NCBI GenBank assembly: GCA_051313645.2
Contig: JBNRSN020000002.1
Location: forward strand, 434,496,001 to 434,560,000
Source: Centroscyllium fabricii
Lineage: Eukaryota
Direction: 5' to 3'
Length of the DNA: 64,000 nucleotides
Each line of letters begins with the position of its first letter. Positions within the stretch are counted from its first letter, which is position 1. Below the pieces are notes generated by a model that saw only the letters and a list, made by a program, of their open reading frames with translations, was not told where the DNA came from and did no database searches. The translations under genes were made by a program, and so were the position numbers. Positions 12,520-64,000 of the stretch are shown piece after piece.

Positions 12520-12648
12520 GACACTTCACCTGAGGAAGGAGCAGCGCTCCGAAAGCTTGTGATTTCAAATAAAACTGTTGGACTATAACCTGGTGTTGTG
12601 TGACTTCTTACAATTGTCCACCCCAGTCCAACACCGGCACCTCCACAC
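12520..12648 (+). mobile_element. Penelope family-B pLTR fragment with hammerhead motif
   Basis: TCAC-CTGAGGA-AGGAGCAGCGCTCC-GAAAGCTT-GTGA, then AATAAAACTGTTGGACTATAACCTGG, as at 44987-45115. Confidence 0.75.
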
Positions 12649-12649
12649 T

Positions 12650-13575
12650 GTGGGGAATGTGTGAGGTCGTCCACTTTGGACCTGAGAAAGACAAATCGGA
12701 ATCTTTTCTTAATGGTGTGAGACTAGGAATTGTGAAGGAGCAAAATTATTTGGATTCCACATACACAGATCACTAAAAGCTAGTGCACGGGTACAAAAGG
12801 TAATCAGAAAGGCTAATGAAATGTTGGCCTTTATATCAAGGAGTTCGGACTTTCACAATGAGGAACTGGTGCTTCAGTTGTATGGAGCCTTGGTCTGAAC
12901 CGATCTGGAGTACTGCATTCAGTTTTGGGCACCACACCTCAGGAAAGATATCTTGGCCTTGGAAGGGGTAAACATAGAAGATAGGAGCAGGAGTAGGCCA
13001 TTCGGCCCCTTGAGCCTGCTCCGCCATTCAATGCGATCATGGCTGATCATCCAAACCCAGTACCCTGTCCCTGCCTTCTCCCCATATCCCTTGATCCCTT
13101 TAGCCTTAAGTACAGTGCAGATTCACCAGAATGATACAGGGCCATAAAAGGTTAAATTATGATTACAGGATGCATAAATTTGTCTTGTACCCCTTCGAGT
13201 TTCGAAGGTTGAAGAGTGATTTAATCAAGGTGTTTAAAATGATAAAGGGATTCGATAGGGTAGATACAGAGAAACTATTTCCTCTGGTGAGGGGGAATCC
13301 AGAACAAAAGGGCACATTAGAGCCAGACCGTTCAGGTGTGAAATCAGGAAGCACTTTTTTCACACAAGAGGTGGTAGAAATGTGGAACTCTCTCCCCCAA
13401 AAGAGGGGGTCAATTGAACTTTTCAAGACTGAGATCGATAGGTTATTGTTTGGTATGGGTATTAAGGAGTATGAAGCAAAGGCGGGTAAATAGAGTTGTG
13501 GTACAGATCAGCCGTGATCTGAATGAAGAGCAGAATGAAAATCTTGAGGGGCTGAAGGTCTAATCCTGTTCCTAT
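12650..13575 (+). mobile_element. Old degenerate CR1, with an antisense CR1/SINE tail inserted at about 12968-13110
   Basis: ORF 13131-13493: FEFRRLKSDLIKVFKMIKGFDRVD.. Confidence 0.75.
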
Positions 13576-40917: not shown

Positions 40918-41987
40918 TACTACATGGCAGGCACACTTTGACCCACATCAAGATTACACACAGTCAGTACAGGTACACAATCCTTTATCCAAAAACCTCG
41001 GGACCAGGCGGTCTTCGGTTTTCGGATAATTTCGGGATGGTGCCCAGTGTGCATGCGCATTGCCGTGTTGGCGGCCGATAGCGCCTCTGAAACGGTAGGA
41101 GATTGTGGGCTCACAACAGAAACCACTGAAGAAACTCAGCAGGCCAGGCAGCATCGGTGGAGAGAGGAGCAGAGTTGATGTTTCAGCTGCAAGAAGTCAC
41201 ACAACACCAGATTATAGTCCAACAGTTTTATTTTAAATCACAAGCTTTCAGAGCTTTTGCCCCTTCGTCAGGTGAAAGAGAGACTGACTTAAAGAACGCA
41301 CATATGGGAGGAAGGGAGAAATCCGATCTCTCCCACATCTCACCTTAGCAGAGATAGACAGAGCACACAAAGGCATATTAACATATTTTAAGAGATTAAT
41401 TTAAACATAGCATATATATATATATATAGAGAGAGAACAATGTGGTCTCTCCAGCTGTTTCACATCACACCTCAGCTGAGGGACATCAAAGCAATCAAAG
41501 GTGTTCTAACATATCAGTCAGCCTGAGATCAAAGGGTGCAGTCACAAAGGGTCAAACGTTACAGTCTGCTGTCCTTGAAAATCCTACAGAATGATTTTTA
41601 AAAAAACAAGGATTTTTCTTACTGAAAATCGCAGAACAAGCCAAAGATGGTTTGACTGCTGAAATGTTCACATGTAGCGCGACATAAATCCAATATCATG
41701 GTCAGTGTTGGGAAAGTTCACACTTAACAAGAGCTAGCTCAAAGTTCAGTTCAATCATTTTAAAATGAACTAGTTCAAGTTCATAGTTCATAATTTTGAA
41801 TTTTGAACTTAAGTTCGCAGCTCAAAAATGAACTAGTTCAAAGTTCGTTTTTTTTTCCTTTTCTTCTAATGCGCTGCCCCGAGCTATTATTTTTCAATAG
41901 AACATCCTCAATGCAAATTATGAAGCAGGAGGAACAAATATCCGATATAGAGAACTGTCTGTATGTATATACACAGGCTGAGTATAT

Positions 41988-42375
41988 AGGGCGGCACGGT
42001 GGCACAGTGCTTAGCACTGCTGTCTCACAGCACTGGAGACCCGGGTTCAAATCCAGCCTTGGGTACTATCTGTGTGGAGTTTGCACATTCTCCCCGTGTC
42101 TGCGTGGGTTTCCTCCGGGTGCTCCGGTTTCCTCCCACAGTCCAAAGATGTGCAGGGTTAGGTTGATTGGCCATGATAAACTGACCCTTAGTGTTAGGGG
42201 GATTGAATATATGGGAATAGGGTGGGATATGTGTCAGTGCAGGCTCGATAGGGATCGAGGGAAAATGGGGAGAGGGCAGGGGCGGGTTACAGGGTTTGGA
42301 TGATCAGCCATGATCTCATTGAATGGTGGAGCAGGCTTGAAGGGCTGAATGGCCGACTCCTGCTCCTATCTTTCT
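41988..42375 (+). mobile_element. V-SINE (HE1-like)
   Basis: Near-identical layout to 10944-11338. Confidence 0.88.
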
Positions 42376-42399
42376 AAATATGAGAGAGAGAGAGAGACA

Positions 42400-44010
42400 C
42401 CCCCCCCTTGTCTCTTCCCCCCCCCGTGTCTCACCCTCCCCCCCGTCTCTCTTCCCCCCCCCGTCTCTCTTCCCCCCCCGTCTCTCTTCCCCCCCCCGTG
42501 TCTNNNNNNNNNNNNNNNNNNNNNNNNNNNNNNNNNNNNNNNNNNNNNNNNNNNNNNNNNNNNNNNNNNNNNNNNNNNNNNNNNNNNNNNNNNNNNNNNN
42601 NNNNNNNNNNNNNNNNNNNNNNNNNNNNNNNNNNNNNNNNNNNNNNNNNNNNNNNNNNNNNNNNNNNNNNNNNNNNNNNNNNNNNNNNNNNNNNNNNNNN
42701 NNNNNNNNNNNNNNNNNNNNNNNNNNNNNNNNNNNNNNNNNNNNNNNNNNNNNNNNNNNNNNNNNNNNNNNNNNNNNNNNNNNNNNNNNNNNNNNNNNNN
42801 NNNNNNNNNNNNCCCCCGTCCGTCTCTCTCCCCCCCGTCCGTCTCTCTCCCCCCCGTCCGTCCGTCTCTCTCCCCCCCCCGGTCCGTCTCTCTCCCCCCC
42901 CCCGTCCGTCTCTCTCCCCCCCACCCCGTCCGTCTCTCTCTCCCCCCTCCGTCCGTCTCTCTCCCCCCCGTCCGTCTCTCTCCCCCCCCCGCCCGTCCGT
43001 CTCTCTCCCCCCCCCCGCCCGTCCGTCTCTCTCCCCCCCCCGCCCGTCCGTCTCTCTCTCCCCCACCCCCGTCCGTCTCTCTCCCCCCCCCGCCCGTCTC
43101 TCTCTCTCTCCCCCCCGCCCCTCTCCCCCCCCCGCCCGTCTCTCTCCCCCCCCCGCCCCTCTCCCCCCCCGCCCGTCTCTCTCCCCCCCGCCCGTCTCTC
43201 TCTCCCCCCCCGCCCGTCTCTCTCCCCCCCGCCCGTCTCTCTCTCCCACCCCCCCGTCCGTCTCTCTCCCCCCCCGCCCCTCTCCCCCCCCGCCCGTCTC
43301 TCTCTCTCCCCCCCCCGCCCGTCTCTCTCTCCCCCCCCCGTCTCTCTCTCCCCCCGCCCGTCTCTCTCTCCCCCCCGCCCGTCTCTCTCTCCCCCCCCGC
43401 CCGTCTCTCTCCCCCCCGCCCGTCCGTCTCTCTCCCCCCCCGCCCCTCTCCCCCCCACCGCCCGTCTCTCTCTCTCTCCCCCCGCCCCTCTCCCCCCCCC
43501 GCCCGTCTCTCTCTCTCTCCCCCCCCCGCCCCTCTCCCCCCCCCCGCCCGTCTCTCTCTCCCCCCCCCGTCTCTCTCTCCCCCCCCGTCTCTCTCTCCCC
43601 CCCCGTCTCTCTCTCCCCACCCGCCCGCCCGTCTCTCTCTCCCCCCCGCCCGTCTCTCTCTCCCGCCCCCGCCCCCGCCCGTCTCTCTCCCCCCCCCCGC
43701 CCGTCCGTCTCTCTCCCCCCCGCCCTCTCCCCCCCCCCGCCCGTCTCTCTCTCTCTCCCCCCCGCCCCTCTCCCCCCCCGCCCGTCTCTCTCTCTCTCCC
43801 CCCCCCGCCCCTCTCCCCCCCCCGCCCGTCTCTCTCTCCCCCCCGTCTCTCTCTCCCCCCCCCCGTCTCTCTCTCCCCCCCCGTCTCTCTCTCCCCCCCC
43901 CGCCCGCCCGTCTCTCTCTCCCCCCGCCCGTCTCTCTCTCCCGCCCCCGCCCCCGCCCGTCTCTCTCCCCCCCGCCCCCGCCCCCGCCCGCCGGTCTCTC
44001 TCTCTCCTCT
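42400..44010. repeat. C/T-rich low-complexity array (CCCGTCTCTCTC..)n containing an assembly gap
   Basis: Direct reading. N run at 42504-42811. Confidence 0.95.
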
Positions 44011-44986
44011 CCCCGAGAGAGAGAGAGAGATTTTTTTGCAAAGCAAAGCCCCGCAGAGCCCTCAGTACAGAGCACTCAGCAGGTCCGGCACACTCACCGT
44101 CGATGGTTTCAGACCCGACCCTTCCCGCATGGAAGGCAGCAGCGACTCGTGTTGCTCTGCGCATGCGTCACATGCCGCAAGAGCGCTGCAAGAGCGCCGC
44201 TCAAACCCTGCAGTCTGAGCGCCGCTCACGTTTTCGCTCAGGCTGCTGGGAAAGCGCGCTCGTTCAGCGTTCACGAAAATGTGAACGCGCTCGTGAACGC
44301 GCGCTCATTTAGCGCGCTCACGGACAACACTGATCATGGTTGAGGCCATGCTCATGGGTGCGGAACTTGGCCGCGCAACAATCGCCAGGCAGGAGTGTTC
44401 CCTCCCAGTCGGGGAACATTTCAGCAGTCAAGGACATTCAGCTTCCGATCTTCAGGTAAGCATTCTCCAAGGTGGCCTTCAAGACACACGACAACGCAAA
44501 ATCGTCGAGCAGAGGCTGATAGCCAAGTTCCGCACCCATGAGCACGGCCTCAACCGTGATATTGGATTTATGTCACGCTACATGTGACCCCACCTGACGT
44601 AGAGTCATCCAGACTCGAACCATCTTTGGCTTGTTCTGCGATTTTCAGTAAGAAAAATCCTTGTTTTTTAAAAAATTCTGTGGGATTTTCAAGGACAGCA
44701 GACTGTAACGTTTGACCCTTTGTGACTGCACCCTTTGATCTCAGGCTGACTGATATGTTAGAACCCCTTTTGATTGCGTTGATGTCCCTCAGCTGAGGTG
44801 TGATGTGAAACAGCTGGAGAGACCACATTGTTCTCTCTCTATATATATATGCTATGTTTAAATGAATCTCCTAAAATATGTTAATACGCCTTTGTGTGCT
44901 CTGTCTATCTCTGCTAAGGTGAGATGTGGGAGAGATCGGATTTCTCCCTTCCTCCCATATGTGCGTTCTTTAAGTCAGTCTCTCTT

Positions 44987-45024
44987 TCACCTGACGAAGG
45001 GGCAAAAGCTCCGAAAGCTTGTGA
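44987..45024 (+). ncRNA. Minimal type I hammerhead ribozyme motif (family B)
   Basis: UCAC-CUGACGA-A-GGGGC-AAAA-GCUCC-GAAA-GCUU-GUGA. Confidence 0.65.
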
Positions 45025-45569
45025 TTTAAAATAAAACTGTTGGACTATAACCTGGTGTTGTGTGACTTCTTGCATTTGTCCACCCCAGTCCAACACTGGC
45101 ACCTCCACATCATGGCTACTATCAATGTTTCAGGTGAAAGACCTTTTTTCAAAAGGAGATTGTGGGCCATTGATACCGGGGCTCGGGCGCAGCGCTGTGT
45201 GAGGGAGGCTGCAGCGGTGGCCCGCGGAATGGCAGGCCGTCCTCGCCCATTAAAGGGGAGGGGCCTAGCGCGGCTGCGGCCAGAGCCCCGCGGGGCCGCC
45301 GAGGGACCGGGAGCTGCAGAACGAGCCCGGCGTTCGGGGGAAGTGCCGGGCTCAGCCGAGGGAGGGCTCACCCTGCCGAGGGAGCCAGAGAATGAGCCCA
45401 GCACTCAGGGGAGGTGCCGGGCTCAGTTGAGGGAGGGTTCACCCCGCCGGGGGAGCCGGAGAACAAGCCCGGCACTGGAGGGAAGTGCCAGGCTCAGCTG
45501 CGGGAGGGCTCACCCGCAGTTTCTACATTTCCTATCGAGCAGTGCAAGGGATGGAATGGGAATGTAATA

Positions 45570-57625: not shown

Positions 57626-57710
57626 TGGACATTTGAGGACAAGATTGGGCTTGGCTGTGATGACTTCCATGGTGAATAGTATGCAGGCACCCACTGTCTT
57701 GACTCACATG

Positions 57711-57928
57711 ATGTGGAGGTGCCGGTGTTGGACTGGGGTGGACAAATGCAAGAAGTCACACAACACCAGATTATAGTCCAACAGTTTTATTTTAAATCAC
57801 AAGCTTTCGGAGCTTTTGCCCCTTCGTCAGGCGAAAGAGAGACCTGACGAAGGGGCAGACACTCCGAAAGCTTGTGATTTAAAATAAAACTGTTGGACTA
57901 TAATCTGGTGTTGTGTGACTTCTTGCAT
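57711..57928. mobile_element. Minimal palindromic Penelope family-B insertion with two opposed hammerhead motifs
   Basis: Inverted arms meet at 57831-57843. TSD TTGACTCACATG (57699-57710 and 57929-57940). Confidence 0.88.
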
Positions 57929-58306
57929 TTGACTCACATGGGTCAAACTGCCACCTGTGTGAGATGCTGGAGAGCGACTAGTACCTTTAGGGAATTGGGT
58001 GGGGGGTGGGGGGTTGGTGCGGGGCGATGCGGGGGCGGTGGCAGCAGAGAATTGGTGGTGATTTGTTTTTTGATACAACAGTTAATTGATGGATTAAAAA
58101 AAAATAAAATTCTCAGGATGTGGTCATTGCTGACAAGGCCAGTAGGTATTGCTCTTGTTGGCCCGAAAAGGTGGTGATGGGCCTTGAACCGCTGAGTAGT
58201 GGTTTTATACAACTGAGTGGCTTGCTCGGCCACTTCATAGGGCAGTTAAGAGTCAACCATATTGGTGTATGTCTGGAGTCACATATAGGCCAGACCGAGT
58301 AAGGAT

Positions 58307-59396
58307 CAATGGGCGTGAAATTTGTGAGCGCACGAATTGGGGCGCTAAAATTGGCGCTGCGCAGAAATTAGTGCCGGCGCTAAATTAGCACCAAAGCACC
58401 TGATATTCACTTTAGCGCCAGCCTTGCAGATTTCGGCACTAAATCAGGTGTTGCATGAAATCCAGCCGGCCAATTTTTTGGCGCTAATTGCCTATCGCGG
58501 GCGCAGCGCTCCTTCAGCAATTCCTTGCTTTTCCATGAACTCTGGAGTCGGAAAGGTCTTAAAGGGGGTAGGGGAAACAGTGCATGATGTGCCGGCACCC
58601 CTCCCTCATCATCTTCCCGATCTCTGCCAATGCCCCTCATCATCTCCCCGATCTCTCCCGACCCCCATCATCATCTCCCCGATCTCGCCCGACCCCCCTC
58701 ATCACCTCCCCGATCTCTCCCGACCCCCCTCATCATCTCCCCGATCTCGCCCGACCCACCTCATCATCTCCCCGATCTCGCCCGACCCCCCTCATCATCT
58801 CCCCGATCTCGCCTGACCCCCCTCAGCATCTGCCAGATCTCGGGCCGCCCTCCCCCCCCTCCCCCCTCCCGCAGCGTCTGGCCGATCTCGGGCCGAAGAG
58901 GCTACCGAGGAAAGGGAGTGTCGCCCTTTTAGCAGCGCTGCAGTGGCCACACAGACCCTCAGCAGCGCTTGCCAAAGCTGGCGCTGGCAGCGCTGTGCCA
59001 GGGGGACTGGCGCAAAGGCAAATTTTGGGTGCAGTCCGACGGGCGGACGTTGCACCTGGATATGCACGACGATTGCTGATCGCAAATTAGCGCGCGCTAA
59101 CAGTTAGCGCCGGTTCTAATCACTGGGTGAATTTAGTGCCCGGCGCTAAAATGTCTGCACCTGGCGCTAAAACCTGTAGCGCCCATTTTCCGCCACTAAC
59201 CCGATGCCGCTAAGGCGCCAATTTTGCGCCCAATGTTCCCTGTAAGCTGTGCGGCCGCGCAACGCCCCAGGGAACCTGCGCAGCCAGCTTGCCAGCACTT
59301 GTGCTCCTCGAACCTGTCCTGCCATTCAATTAGATCGTGGCTGATCTGTATCTTAAAGGGGCCGCGCAGGGCCAAAATAAATGACAGGGAACATTG
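58307..59396. mobile_element. Small hAT-like MITE whose left TIR is split by a Harbinger MITE
   Basis: CAAT[insert]GTTCCCTGT...ACAGGGAACATTG, with 8-bp near-TSD GTAAGGAT/GTAACGAT. Confidence 0.75.
58311..59231. mobile_element. Harbinger-like MITE with internal ~30-bp minisatellite
   Basis: GGGCGTGAAATT / AATTTTGCGCCC, TSD AAT, and CCCTCATCATCTCCCCGATCTCGCCCGACC repeats at 58605-58840. Confidence 0.8.
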
Positions 59397-60027: not shown

Positions 60028-60954
60028 CAGGTTGAGCACCCATAATCCAGCACCCGATGGTCCAGCAGCTTCAGTGGTTCGGCACGATTGGAAACCGACG
60101 CTCTTTATTTTGCGGAGCATCCGCTCGGCGGTGCCACCATTTCCCGCGAAGGGTGGGCGAGCGCCGAAGGTGTCGGGCATTTGGGTTTCTGGTTTTTTTA
60201 CGTCTTAGAAACATAGAAACATAGAAACTAGGAGCAGGAGTAGGCCATTCGGCCCTTCGAGCCTGCTCCGCCATTCAATTAGATCATGACTGATCATCCA
60301 AACCCAGTACCCCACCCCTGCCCTCTCCCCATATCCCTTGATTCCCATCGAGCCTGCACCGACACATATCCCACCCTATCCCCGTAACCCCACATATTTA
60401 ATCCCCCTAACACTAAGGGTCAATTTATCCTGGCCAATCAACCTAACTCGCACATCTTTGGACTGTGGGAGGAAACCGGAGCACCCAGAGGAAACCCACG
60501 CAGACACGGGGAGAATGTACAAACTCCACACAGATAGTCACCCGAGGCTGGATTTGAACCCGGGTCTTGTAAGTGTTCTATCCCTGGGCTCCATCCCGGG
60601 GCGTGTTCTACCGCGCACTCCGGGCCCCGTCGAGTGTTCTGCCATGCGCTCCAGGCCCCGGGGAGTGTTCTGCCGCGCGCTCCAGGCCCCGGGGAGTGTT
60701 CTACCGCACGCTCCAGGATCCGGGGAGTGTTCTACCGCACGCTCCAGGCCCCGGGGAGTGTTCTACCGCACGCTCCAGGCCCCGGGGAGTGTTCTACCGC
60801 ACGCTCCAGGATCCGGGGAGTGTTCTACCGTGCGCTCTGAGCCCCGGGGAGTGTTCTACCCGTATGCTCCCCCCGAACCTTCAGTGGTTCGGAATTTTCA
60901 GTGGTCCGGCACCGGCCTGGTCCCGAGGGTGCCGGATTAACGGTGCTCAACCTG
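60028..60954 (+). mobile_element. Tigger-like MITE (family of 7178-7524) with nested V-SINE (60207-60563, minus) and expanded ~30-bp repeat
   Basis: TA|CAGGTTGAGCACC...GGTGCTCAACCTG|TA. CCGGGGAGTGTTCTACCGCACGCTCCAGG repeats at about 60590-60860. Confidence 0.88.
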
Positions 60955-61455
60955 TACTCTCTGTGTGAAGAAGTGCTTCCTGACATTACCCCTGATTGGC
61001 CCAGCTCTAATTTTAAGGTTAGGTCCCCTTGTTCTGGACTCCCCAAGATGGCGCAATCCATTTGGTTTCCTTTCCTTTCGTGTGTGGGAACATCGCCCTC
61101 TCATGATGGCACAGCTGGGATTGGTGACCCATTGTGGACAGATAGTTTTGAAAATGTTAAGTCATTATTTCTTGCCCATAGAATCATACAGAACTTGTCT
61201 GAATCCATAAAAAAATTTTTTTTTAAACAATTTGAAACACAGGATACAACTAAGGCAACTCCACTCGGTTTGCCTGTTCTTGACTTGCATTATAGCATCC
61301 AAATCTTGATACAACCATGGCAATAATTGAAATGAGTCTTGACTGACCGTAATCTAATTTAAGAGGGCATAATCTTAAAATTAGAGCTGGGCCAGTTAGG
61401 AGTGAAATCAGGAAGGGTGGTGAAAATCTAAAACCCTCTCCCCTAACTTTTCAAG

Positions 61456-62756
61456 ATGTGGACTGGTGTGGACAAATGTAAGAAGTCACACAACACCAGG
61501 TTATAGTCCAACAGCTTTATTTGAAATCACAAGCTTTCGGAGCGCTGCTCCTTCATCAGGCCATTCAGCCTCCGATCTTCGGGTAAGCATTCTCCAAGGC
61601 GGCCTTCGAGACACACGACAACGCAAAATCGTCGAGCAGAGGCTGATAGCCAAGTTCCGCACTCATGAGCGAGGCCTCAACCGTGAGATTGGCTTCATGT
61701 GACCCCCACCTGACGCAGAGTCATCCAGACTCGAGTCGTCTTTGGCTTGTCCTCACCACGCAGCTGCGGCTGTACCGGCTGCGATTTCCAGCAAGAAAAA
61801 TCTTTTTTTTTTAATTGTTCTGTGTGGGTTTTCACACAGACCCCAGACTGAGCAACATTTGACCCTTTGCGACTCCACCTCATTGTTCCTGGGGTGGTGC
61901 CTGACTGACTGACTGATCTGTTTGAACACCATTCACACCTTTGATTGCTATGAATGTCTCTCTGCCGAGGTGTGATGAAGGGCAGTTGGAAAGACTACAT
62001 TGTTCTCTCCGGCGCGTGTAGACGCAGCGGCTTTGCGTCTCCCGGGGTGATGCTTTCCGCTGGTAGTTCTGGGTCTGTTCACTCGGAGGGGATGGCGAGT
62101 TCGGCGTGGTAGTGCACCGGGGTCAGTGCAACGGAGTTGTTGGAGCACCGGGATGTCTGCGATCAGAGCATTGGGGATGCACCGAGGCCGACATGGTCGG
62201 AGCGCCCGGGCCTTGAGGTCGTGTTCGGAGCCGGAGCCTGCGTGGTCACCGAGGTTGGTGTGCTCGGAGCGCCAGAGCCTGCGTGGTCACCGAGGTCGGT
62301 GTGCTCGGAGCGCCAGAGCCTGCGTGGTCACCGAGGTCGACGTGGTCGTAGCACCGGAGGTCGGCAAGTTCGGAGCACTGGGGCCTGCAGAGTCAGAGTG
62401 CCGGTGCCTGCGTGGTCACCGAGGTGGTCGTAGCGCCGGAGGTCGGCGAGTTCGGAGCGCCGGAGCCTGCGTGGTCGGAGCACCAGGGCCAACATGGAGT
62501 TGAGCAGACTGGGACTTGAAGCAGTGGACATTTTAACATCTGCATCGTTTCTTGGGAGTTTGCAAGAATGTATTTCGTTGTACAGTGTATTGTGTTTGCT
62601 CACTCTGCAATGACAATAAATTGAATCTAATCTAATCTAATATGCTGTGTTTAAATGCATCTCTCTTACACCTGAAGGAGCTGCGCTCCGAAAGCTTGTG
62701 AGTTCAAATAAAACTGTTGGACTATAACCTGGTGTTGTGTGACTTCTTGCATTTGT
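61456..62756 (+). mobile_element. Penelope family-B insertion with inverted 5' pLTR, inserted in a CR1
   Basis: 13-bp TSD CTAACTTTTCAAG (61443-61455 and 62757-62769), inverted arm 61456-61560, GIY-YIG end 61561-61702. Confidence 0.88.
62011..62641 (+). mobile_element. GC-rich non-coding retroposon with Rex1-type tail
   Basis: ~41-bp tandem units CGGAGCGCCAGAGCCTGCGTGGTCACCGAGGTCGG. It ends ACTCTGCAATGACAATAAATTGAATCTAATCTAAT, like the Rex1 tail at 36417-36452. Confidence 0.55.
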
Positions 62757-64000
62757 CTAACTTTTCAAGGCTGAGATCGATAGATGTTTGCTGGGTAAGG
62801 GTATCGAGGGCAATGGAGCAACAGCGGGTAAATGGAGTCGTGGTACAGGTCAGCCGTGATCTAATTGAATTGTGGCGCAGCAGGCTCGAGGGAGCTGCTG
62901 TCCCAATGCATAATTGAATTGAGTTTTGACTAATCTTAATTTAGTTTTCATAGTTGAGCTCTGTGGCACAGACTCGGGCTATGAATTGACAATCCCAGTC
63001 CTCCTGCAGCACAAGGACAGATGGTACGGGAAATGAAAACGTCGCACAGGTACAATTAGTCTTCAGGCAACCTCCTGAGGCATCGCATGGGGAGCTCTGT
63101 ATGACCTCCAGCCTTTCCTATACCCTGCTTGGAGTGTTTGATATTGTCACTGGGTGCAAAAACAGCTTTGACTTCCCATTGCGGACTTGTCTCCTCATAA
63201 TCATCACAAAAATTCATAACATGCAAGAAAAGAATGCAATACCAGATGGTCCAGAGTAGATCATTAAGGGGGTGTTTCATCCCTTGTTGGATTCGGTCGC
63301 TCTCTGCTGCACCACATGTGCATCAGCTGACCCCAAATCACTACGGGTACCTAGGCGATGCCTCCTGAATATCCATTATAGATTTCCATACTCCCCTGTC
63401 CTTCTCTTATTCATTGACTGAGTTGAAAGTGAAACACGTCTGCTCCCGTAACAGGCAGATGATCAGTATTCGGCCCAACTGACCAGACTCCTGCTCTGAC
63501 AGAGCCCTGCAGGAGTTGTTAACCCAGAAAGCTACATGCACTGGAGCAGCACGTTGACGGATAAAGTGCACGCTTATAAATTGAGAGCAGGGGGCAGAAG
63601 GACTTCACGTTTTTAAGCTGCCTCTGGCTGAGCCGCCGTGGCTCAGAAGGCAGGGGGGGCACAGAGGAATTGAAGATCAATATACAGGAAACTCTTTATT
63701 GTCCGGTGCCGACGGGACCGGCGTGTTGCCCATTTATCAACATTTCCGGATAACAGGGAGGGTTATCTACTGAGGCCTTTTTTAACAAAGAAAAATTAAA
63801 AAATCAAGAAATGTGCAGTAAACAGTAATTGGGTACTCACCTACAGAATGTTGTGTTAAATGGATGGTGGAAGATGCTTGATTAAGTACAGTGCTGCCAG
63901 TTGAGGGTAATGCAATGCCATGACTACCAGCAGCGTGGGCGATATTGGACCAGAATTTCGGGTTTGCCGGTTGGTGGGGAACTAGGACCATGCGGAGCCC

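Follow-up and report, generated by a model that had tools for sequence, protein, structure and literature searches.

Short double-hammerhead hairpins in Centroscyllium fabricii as probable head-to-head insertions of Penelope-like element ends

The hairpin with two back-to-back hammerhead motifs that lies at 57699..57940 of a 64,000-nt stretch of Centroscyllium fabricii DNA (the window; contig JBNRSN020000002.1) is genuine. It is probably a short head-to-head insertion of two Neptune-like Penelope pLTR ends and would have formed in a single event, with reverse transcription (RT) primed on each of the two nicked target strands. This reading joins observed sequence patterns to an analogy with a Penelope-like element (PLE) of a different clade and species.

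The whole unit measures 218 bp and retains no ORF (Table 1). Its inverted arms are 89 nt long (57743-57831 and 57843-57931) and 97% complementary, and a 12-bp direct repeat, TTGACTCACATG, encloses the unit as a TSD, with edges at which 3-4 nt on each side also fit the element ends. The first-pass annotation had described the insert as a TSD and two inverted pLTR arms only; the arms and the repeat were correctly identified, while a 32-nt tail was missed. Because this tail sits on the left arm only, the insert is asymmetric. The tailed arm is identical at 130 of 133 nt to a pLTR near 44977-45110 of the window. All the features by which an EN+ PLE inverted insertion is recognised are found here, namely pLTR-derived arms, an adjacent head-to-head copy, a tail at one end and a TSD around the unit. 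Folding of both strands, suggested as a check, gave a single long hairpin on each (-170.3 and -164.8 kcal/mol), with a z-score of about -24.5 and none of 200 shuffles equally stable.

Table 1. Features of the insert, in coordinates of the window
Feature	Coordinates	Strand	Remarks
Left TSD copy	57699..57710		12 bp; final 4 nt shared with the tail end
Tail, on one arm only	57711..57742	-	32 nt; parent equivalent ends at the ORF start codon, 121 nt past CUGA
Tailed pLTR arm	57743..57843	-	5' end 11-13 nt upstream of CUGA
Parent-like minimal type I hammerhead	57797..57834	-	Stem I 4 bp (one G-U), core CUGACGA 57830-57824, stem II 5 bp
Head-to-head junction	57831..57843		13 nt separating the two CUGA motifs; 1-2 nt microhomology
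Degenerate minimal hammerhead	57842..57875	+	Stem I 2 bp, stem II 4 bp, core 57844-57850, CUU 57871-57873
Tail-less pLTR arm	57844..57931	+	Ends about 85-88 nt past CUGA
AATAAA, pLTR-derived	57883..57888	+	Mirror copy 57791-57786 on the minus strand; candidate signal by sequence
Right TSD copy	57929..57940		12 bp; initial 3 nt also match the arm end

Each arm carries, in order, CUGACGA, stem II, GAAA, the palindrome AGCU, CUU and then AATAAA, with CUGA starting at 57830 on the minus strand and at 57844 on the plus strand. Two hammerhead cores, one per arm and strand and about 13 nt apart, had been claimed from the outset, and both were located at that spacing; they are back to back as described but unequal in stems I and II. 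The minus arm has the complete set of minimal type I features (CUGANGA, GAAA, NUH, stems I and II, and a palindromic helix III position), with the palindromic AGCU replacing stem III and CUU at 57803-57801. On the plus arm, stem I is reduced to 2 bp because the junction cut most of it away, and stem II is one pair shorter than its minus-strand counterpart. An Rfam scan of the hairpin at E<=1 matched no hammerhead model. The Rfam family MIR7533 was set aside as a generic hairpin match (its 47 bits fall far below the gathering score of 230).

Transcription of either strand produces the antisense arm before the hammerhead core, which this arm is predicted to mask: in the fold models CUGANGA would be paired on both nascent strands from the moment of emergence. 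The expectation that a transcript of either strand would contain a ribozyme followed by AATAAA thus holds for the order of the motifs but not for the ribozyme, the core being predicted fully paired. Isolated minimal hammerheads did not cleave as monomers in the study PMC4209133. The ribozymes in the hairpin are likely passengers, and the inserted product was probably defunct from the start.

A longer copy in the window, with an endonuclease-like peptide end followed by the same pLTR, was used to search the genome for the parent element; 150 matches were scored out of 60,281 candidates, and five of those 150 lie in 919-aa open frames. The locus L156 (G000:C700:17364500-17373500) contains two intact 890-aa ORFs, 99.9% identical to each other, in a 3,096-bp tandem with no tail at its end and an inverted 5' piece present. 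Judged by its sequence, it appears to be a very young, possibly active Neptune-like element; it belongs to a sister subfamily, its pLTR being 93% identical to the hairpin's arm. The 890-aa protein matches RVT_1 (E=9e-10) and carries DKG and YIDD motifs, a CX4CxxC linker (CHSNLCKTC at residue 752, within the Neptune pattern CX2-5CxxC) and a GIY-YIG-like VVY...YIG motif at 789; Pfam returned no GIY-YIG match on this protein and nothing on the 83-aa endonuclease-end fragment. An RT-EN linker of the CX2-5CxxC type is tied to Neptune in the accessible parts of PMC8557442, where a Zn-finger-like linker is also noted in Nematis, and the linker suggests that the parent is a Neptune-like Penelope element.

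Hairpins of this kind form a large genomic population. A 22-nt pLTR-end motif occurs 125,674 times in the genome; 50 of the first 100 matches listed fall in 25 head-to-head pairs within 6 kb, and 7 of those 25 listed pairs have the size of this hairpin. At least 3,651 hairpins have the two motifs separated by any spacer of 0-30 nt (control 0). The junction of our locus, allowing at most one mismatch, is found at 84 loci (four exact, including this one; control 0), which rules out the notion that its centre is unique to the locus and amounts to about 2% of the at least 3,651 hairpins. Among the first 50 consecutive hairpins on contig C1 there are 47 distinct junctions, and a commoner junction, present at 133 loci and in 3 of these 50, uses a natural 5-nt inverted repeat of the parent. 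The annotation had proposed the shortest product of Penelope inverted insertion: an inverted insertion it is, but not the shortest, since pairs of 51, 118 and 129 bp start-to-start exist, and the short hairpins are instead the commonest short class of such insertions.

The anatomy of these hairpins is highly regular. We scored 75, comprising 26 with the junction of our locus and the 50 consecutive ones (one shared), and in 64 of them one tailed arm (+120..+135) is combined with one tail-less arm (+78..+95); none has two tails, none lacks a tail, and 11 are disrupted. The TSD measures 11-14 bp in 55/75, with a mode of 12 bp (28/75). Arms of the same hairpin differ at 1.47 positions on average, compared with 3.51 for shuffled pairs (0/10,000 permutations; 58 of the 75 scorable), and the corresponding values for our junction are 2.05 and 3.11 (n=21). 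In 18 of 21 copies of this junction both arms have the same stem II loop, which varies between copies in four or more variants. Of 23 copies of this junction (three disrupted copies of the 26 being left out), 9 carry the tail on the arm that reaches further upstream and 14 carry it on the shorter arm; the tailed arm is the longer in 23, the shorter in 16 and tied in 8 of 47 scorable consecutive hairpins. Microhomology lengths are unreliable, taking large negative values, where the parent variant is absent from our 35-sequence library.

These patterns bear directly on the other reading offered by the first-pass annotation, a self-contained retrozyme-like unit that would be transcribed as a hairpin, cut by its own hammerheads and inserted again in trans as a whole. 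Such a unit could explain why 84 loci have a junction in common with detectable TSDs that differ, as the annotation had asked to be checked, and why the 133-locus class has its tail almost always on the same side and repeats some arm asymmetries. However, junction sharing does not discriminate, because this junction is such a small part of all hairpins, occurs in several subfamilies with matching arms (four or more stem II loop variants) and has its tail on either side. Also contrary to a mobile unit are the diversity of junctions (47/50) and the scarcity of recurring arm differences: for this junction only four single-base differences recur, in 2-3 copies each, and they are clustered at a CpG beside GAAA. 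No tandem same-strand array of the hairpin was found, both cores are predicted to be masked, and just 1 of 82 arms has its 5' end near the cleavage site. The insert also lacks ORF sequence past the start sites, which the element studied in vitro needs (PMC11167929). Copies of our junction do not share one master structure, as those of a non-LTR retrozyme would, and the case is less clear in the 133-copy class. For this junction class a mobile mini-element is largely refuted, and we consider a retrozyme-like origin of the hairpin very improbable.

Priming at both nicks would account for this anatomy. The element protein would cut the two target strands about 12 bp apart; of the resulting 3' ends, one would prime cDNA at the tail end (about +121, where the ORF starts) and its partner at about +85, the pLTR end. 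The two cDNAs would usually be copied from the same RNA or from RNAs of one subfamily. Each would extend past the hammerhead and terminate about 0-17 nt upstream of it, probably where the RNA begins, and the two cDNA ends would be joined via 1-5 nt of microhomology. Such events would be expected to leave a single tail, a TSD of fixed length, arms that match and of which either may be the longer, and junctions that recur because the stop zone and the microhomology are set by the parent sequence. In vitro, the protein of an Anolis element cuts and extends both target strands, and its RT starts at two internal RNA sites that bound the tail; RNA downstream of the start sites is required, and hammerhead cleavage is not, uncleaved RNA being used (PMC11167929). 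That study does not derive inverted insertions from the two primings.

Longer inverted insertions follow the same one-tail rule. In 16 of them, picked for an endonuclease end on both arms, 6 have the tail on the longer arm and 10 on the shorter, with as much as 2.4 kb between the lengths of the two arms; junction overlaps of 1-6 nt are present in 13 and a TSD of 11-14 bp in 14.

Several further copies lie in the window itself. A longer head-to-head insertion of the same family at 41188-45123 has a tail-less minus arm, a tailed plus arm with an endonuclease end and a possible 9-bp TSD, and was later broken by SINE-like repeats, a CT-rich array and an N stretch. A third head-to-head insertion, of an older subfamily, occupies 61443-62769 with a 13-bp TSD (61443-61455 and 62757-62769); its minus arm stops 1-2 nt upstream of CUGA and adjoins inverted endonuclease-coding sequence. 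At 12525-12653 there is a solo tailed arm of an older subfamily, with its 5' end about 5 nt upstream of CUGA. Elsewhere in the genome, the loci L037, L113 and L131 have in common a +45 to +84 pLTR-end fragment and, on either side of it, the same flanking sequence in all three, suggesting capture inside another repeat family. Two direct arrays built from a 31-nt unit also lie in the window, some 2 kb from each other (58569-58878 and 60565-60905).

A rival to dual priming is fold-back, by which one cDNA, or an antisense template, would snap back and copy itself, the endonuclease then trimming the tail from one side. Self-priming is the published interpretation of PLE inverted insertions (PMC3846280), and endonuclease resolution has been proposed for the tail (PMC8557442). 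Fold-back is consistent with the private variants shared by the two arms of a hairpin, with the near-symmetry often seen in short copies and with the position of the commonest junction, which falls on the parent's natural 5-bp inverted repeat at the junction zone (133 loci; 3/50). Yet fold-back of a tail-primed cDNA would make the tailed arm the longer one, and the tail is on the shorter arm in 14/23 copies of our junction, 26/28 of the 5-nt-microhomology class, 16/47 consecutive hairpins and 10/16 long insertions. Trimming of a two-tailed intermediate could rescue the model, but two-tailed copies are rare (0/75 and 1/30). A tail on the shorter arm, which a single fold-back cDNA cannot produce, speaks for two cDNAs that were primed separately. 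We regard fold-back as an unlikely origin.

A pattern against dual priming comes from the 5-nt-microhomology class: 26 of 28 copies carry the tail on the arm that is shorter upstream (p=3e-6; 30 copies sampled of 133), a bias that differs from that of our junction (Fisher p=0.014). Two arm-to-arm differences recur in this class, in 5 of 26 copies each. The bias fits two different RNA templates combined with an ordered joining step, and it also fits copying of the whole unit. With its nearly fixed tail side and recurring arm differences, this 133-locus class is the best candidate for whole-unit copying; that a subset of double-hammerhead hairpins is re-copied whole by the Penelope machinery, as a palindromic non-autonomous mini-element unlike the tandem retrozymes, nonetheless seems improbable. 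One sampled copy of the 30 (L222) has two tails and no TSD. In the copies of this class (L206-L235), more of the arms differ at subfamily sites.

The 5' ends of the arms concentrate just upstream of the hammerhead. Of 82 unselected arms, collected in genomic order from 80 of the first 100 places listed, 17 end at -17..+2 relative to CUGA, three further apparent ends having been censored as alignment artefacts before this count. Per 100 nt at risk, this zone has 1.44 ends, against 0.31 in the downstream stretch and 0.52 in the upstream one (p=9e-5), and the pile-up persists with one arm per locus (p=0.002). No pile-up was seen among these 82 arms at the CUU cleavage site. An apparent pile-up at -119 proved to be an alignment artefact at a subfamily-variable stretch. 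Exact genome counts are 13,720 at -12, 8,156 at -16 and 7,379 at -22, a drop of 40.6% over the first interval versus 9.5% over the second, with the true step nearer 17-20% because a subfamily with an extra TC and mutation cause part of the first drop; in 30 sampled copies, five losses represented the extra-TC subfamily and five were true ends at about -12..-17.

The edge of the stop zone falls on TCAGT, which can be read both as an initiator-like motif, its A lying 14 nt upstream of CUGA, and as a 3' splice-site AG (-14/-13). No spliced joins were found in the 30 sampled copies. In Drosophila, the accessible accounts of Penelope describe an Inr/DPE promoter with a 5' intron (PMC2377424) and an intron end that maps to the 5' side of helix I (PMC4209133). 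We favor an RNA start at the stop zone over a splice boundary or an RT stall. A DPE-like match in the stem II loop was dropped, as it fits only one subfamily variant. Two full-length elements (L157 and L158) fit an RNA start at this position: their 5' and 3' pLTRs match each other only from 13 and 23 nt upstream of CUGA onward.

Alternatively, the hairpin could have formed after insertion: two independent insertions may have nested head to head, or a longer inverted element may have lost its centre by deletion, gene conversion then having made the arms alike. Long inverted elements are indeed common (25 head-to-head pairs among the first 100 matches listed), and the element studied in vitro cleaves its own pLTR (PMC11167929). 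Against such an origin, a single TSD surrounds the whole unit with none at its centre, the one-tail rule is strict, and deletions would not be expected to end so often within a 20-nt zone of both arms; we find this explanation barely credible.

The layout of inverted pLTR, tail and TSD is already published, and in this respect the hairpin is a stub that is ordinary in kind. In their accessible parts, PMC3846280 and PMC8557442 describe EN+ PLE complex insertions as a 5'-truncated copy with an adjacent inverted pLTR, a one-sided tail of 30-40 bp and a TSD, and our hairpin resembles them in its head-to-head inverted pLTRs, its 32-nt one-sided tail and the TSD around the unit. Its TSD of about 12 bp differs from the 8-10 bp of the rotifer examples in those accounts, and the complex insertions as described there differ from the hairpin in its absence of an ORF, its 218-bp size, its thousands of copies and its junctions clustered just upstream of the hammerhead. 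A literature search that was thin in subscription journals and excluded supplements returned no paper on dual-nick priming of PLE inverted insertions and none describing these short hairpins.

Among related ribozyme-bearing elements, dual minimal hammerheads on opposite strands have been reported about 100-700 bp apart (Cervera and de la Pena 2014, PMC4209133, accessible text). The hammerheads studied here resemble the metazoan PLE minimal type I hammerheads of that work: the core boxes agree, stem I is short, a base 5' of stem II is left unpaired, and the helix III positions are palindromic. Unlike those described in the accessible text, they have cores just 13 nt apart, a stem II of 5 bp (7-8 bp there) and CUU as their cleavage triplet. 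The hairpin's element also resembles Poseidon PAc of Anolis carolinensis (Frangieh et al. 2024, PMC11167929), in which two 3' end positions bound the tail and the hammerhead lies in the pLTR; we count as a further likeness that uncleaved RNA is apparently the template. The Poseidon PAc ORF starts inside the hammerhead, whereas in the parent of the hairpin the ATG comes 121 nt further downstream, where the tail ends, and this parent, unlike Poseidon PAc, has a Neptune-type linker. Metazoan non-LTR retrozymes are same-strand tandem repeats with one hammerhead per unit that release monomers and circles, according to the accessible parts of PMC7229834 and bioRxiv 10.64898/2026.07.22.740005. Like them the hairpin is small, non-coding and PLE-derived and has a type I hammerhead, and unlike them, as so described, it is an inverted pair with one core per strand and no same-strand tandem repeat.

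For PLEs more broadly, the literature in its accessible parts proposes self-priming or endonuclease resolution as the origin of inverted insertions and the one-sided tail, and the thousands of young hairpins in C. fabricii provide a genomic test of this mechanism. From the clustering of ends immediately upstream of the hammerhead, we predict that the element's RNA starts there or that its RT stops there. More speculatively, the hairpins might supply double-stranded RNA against the parent element.
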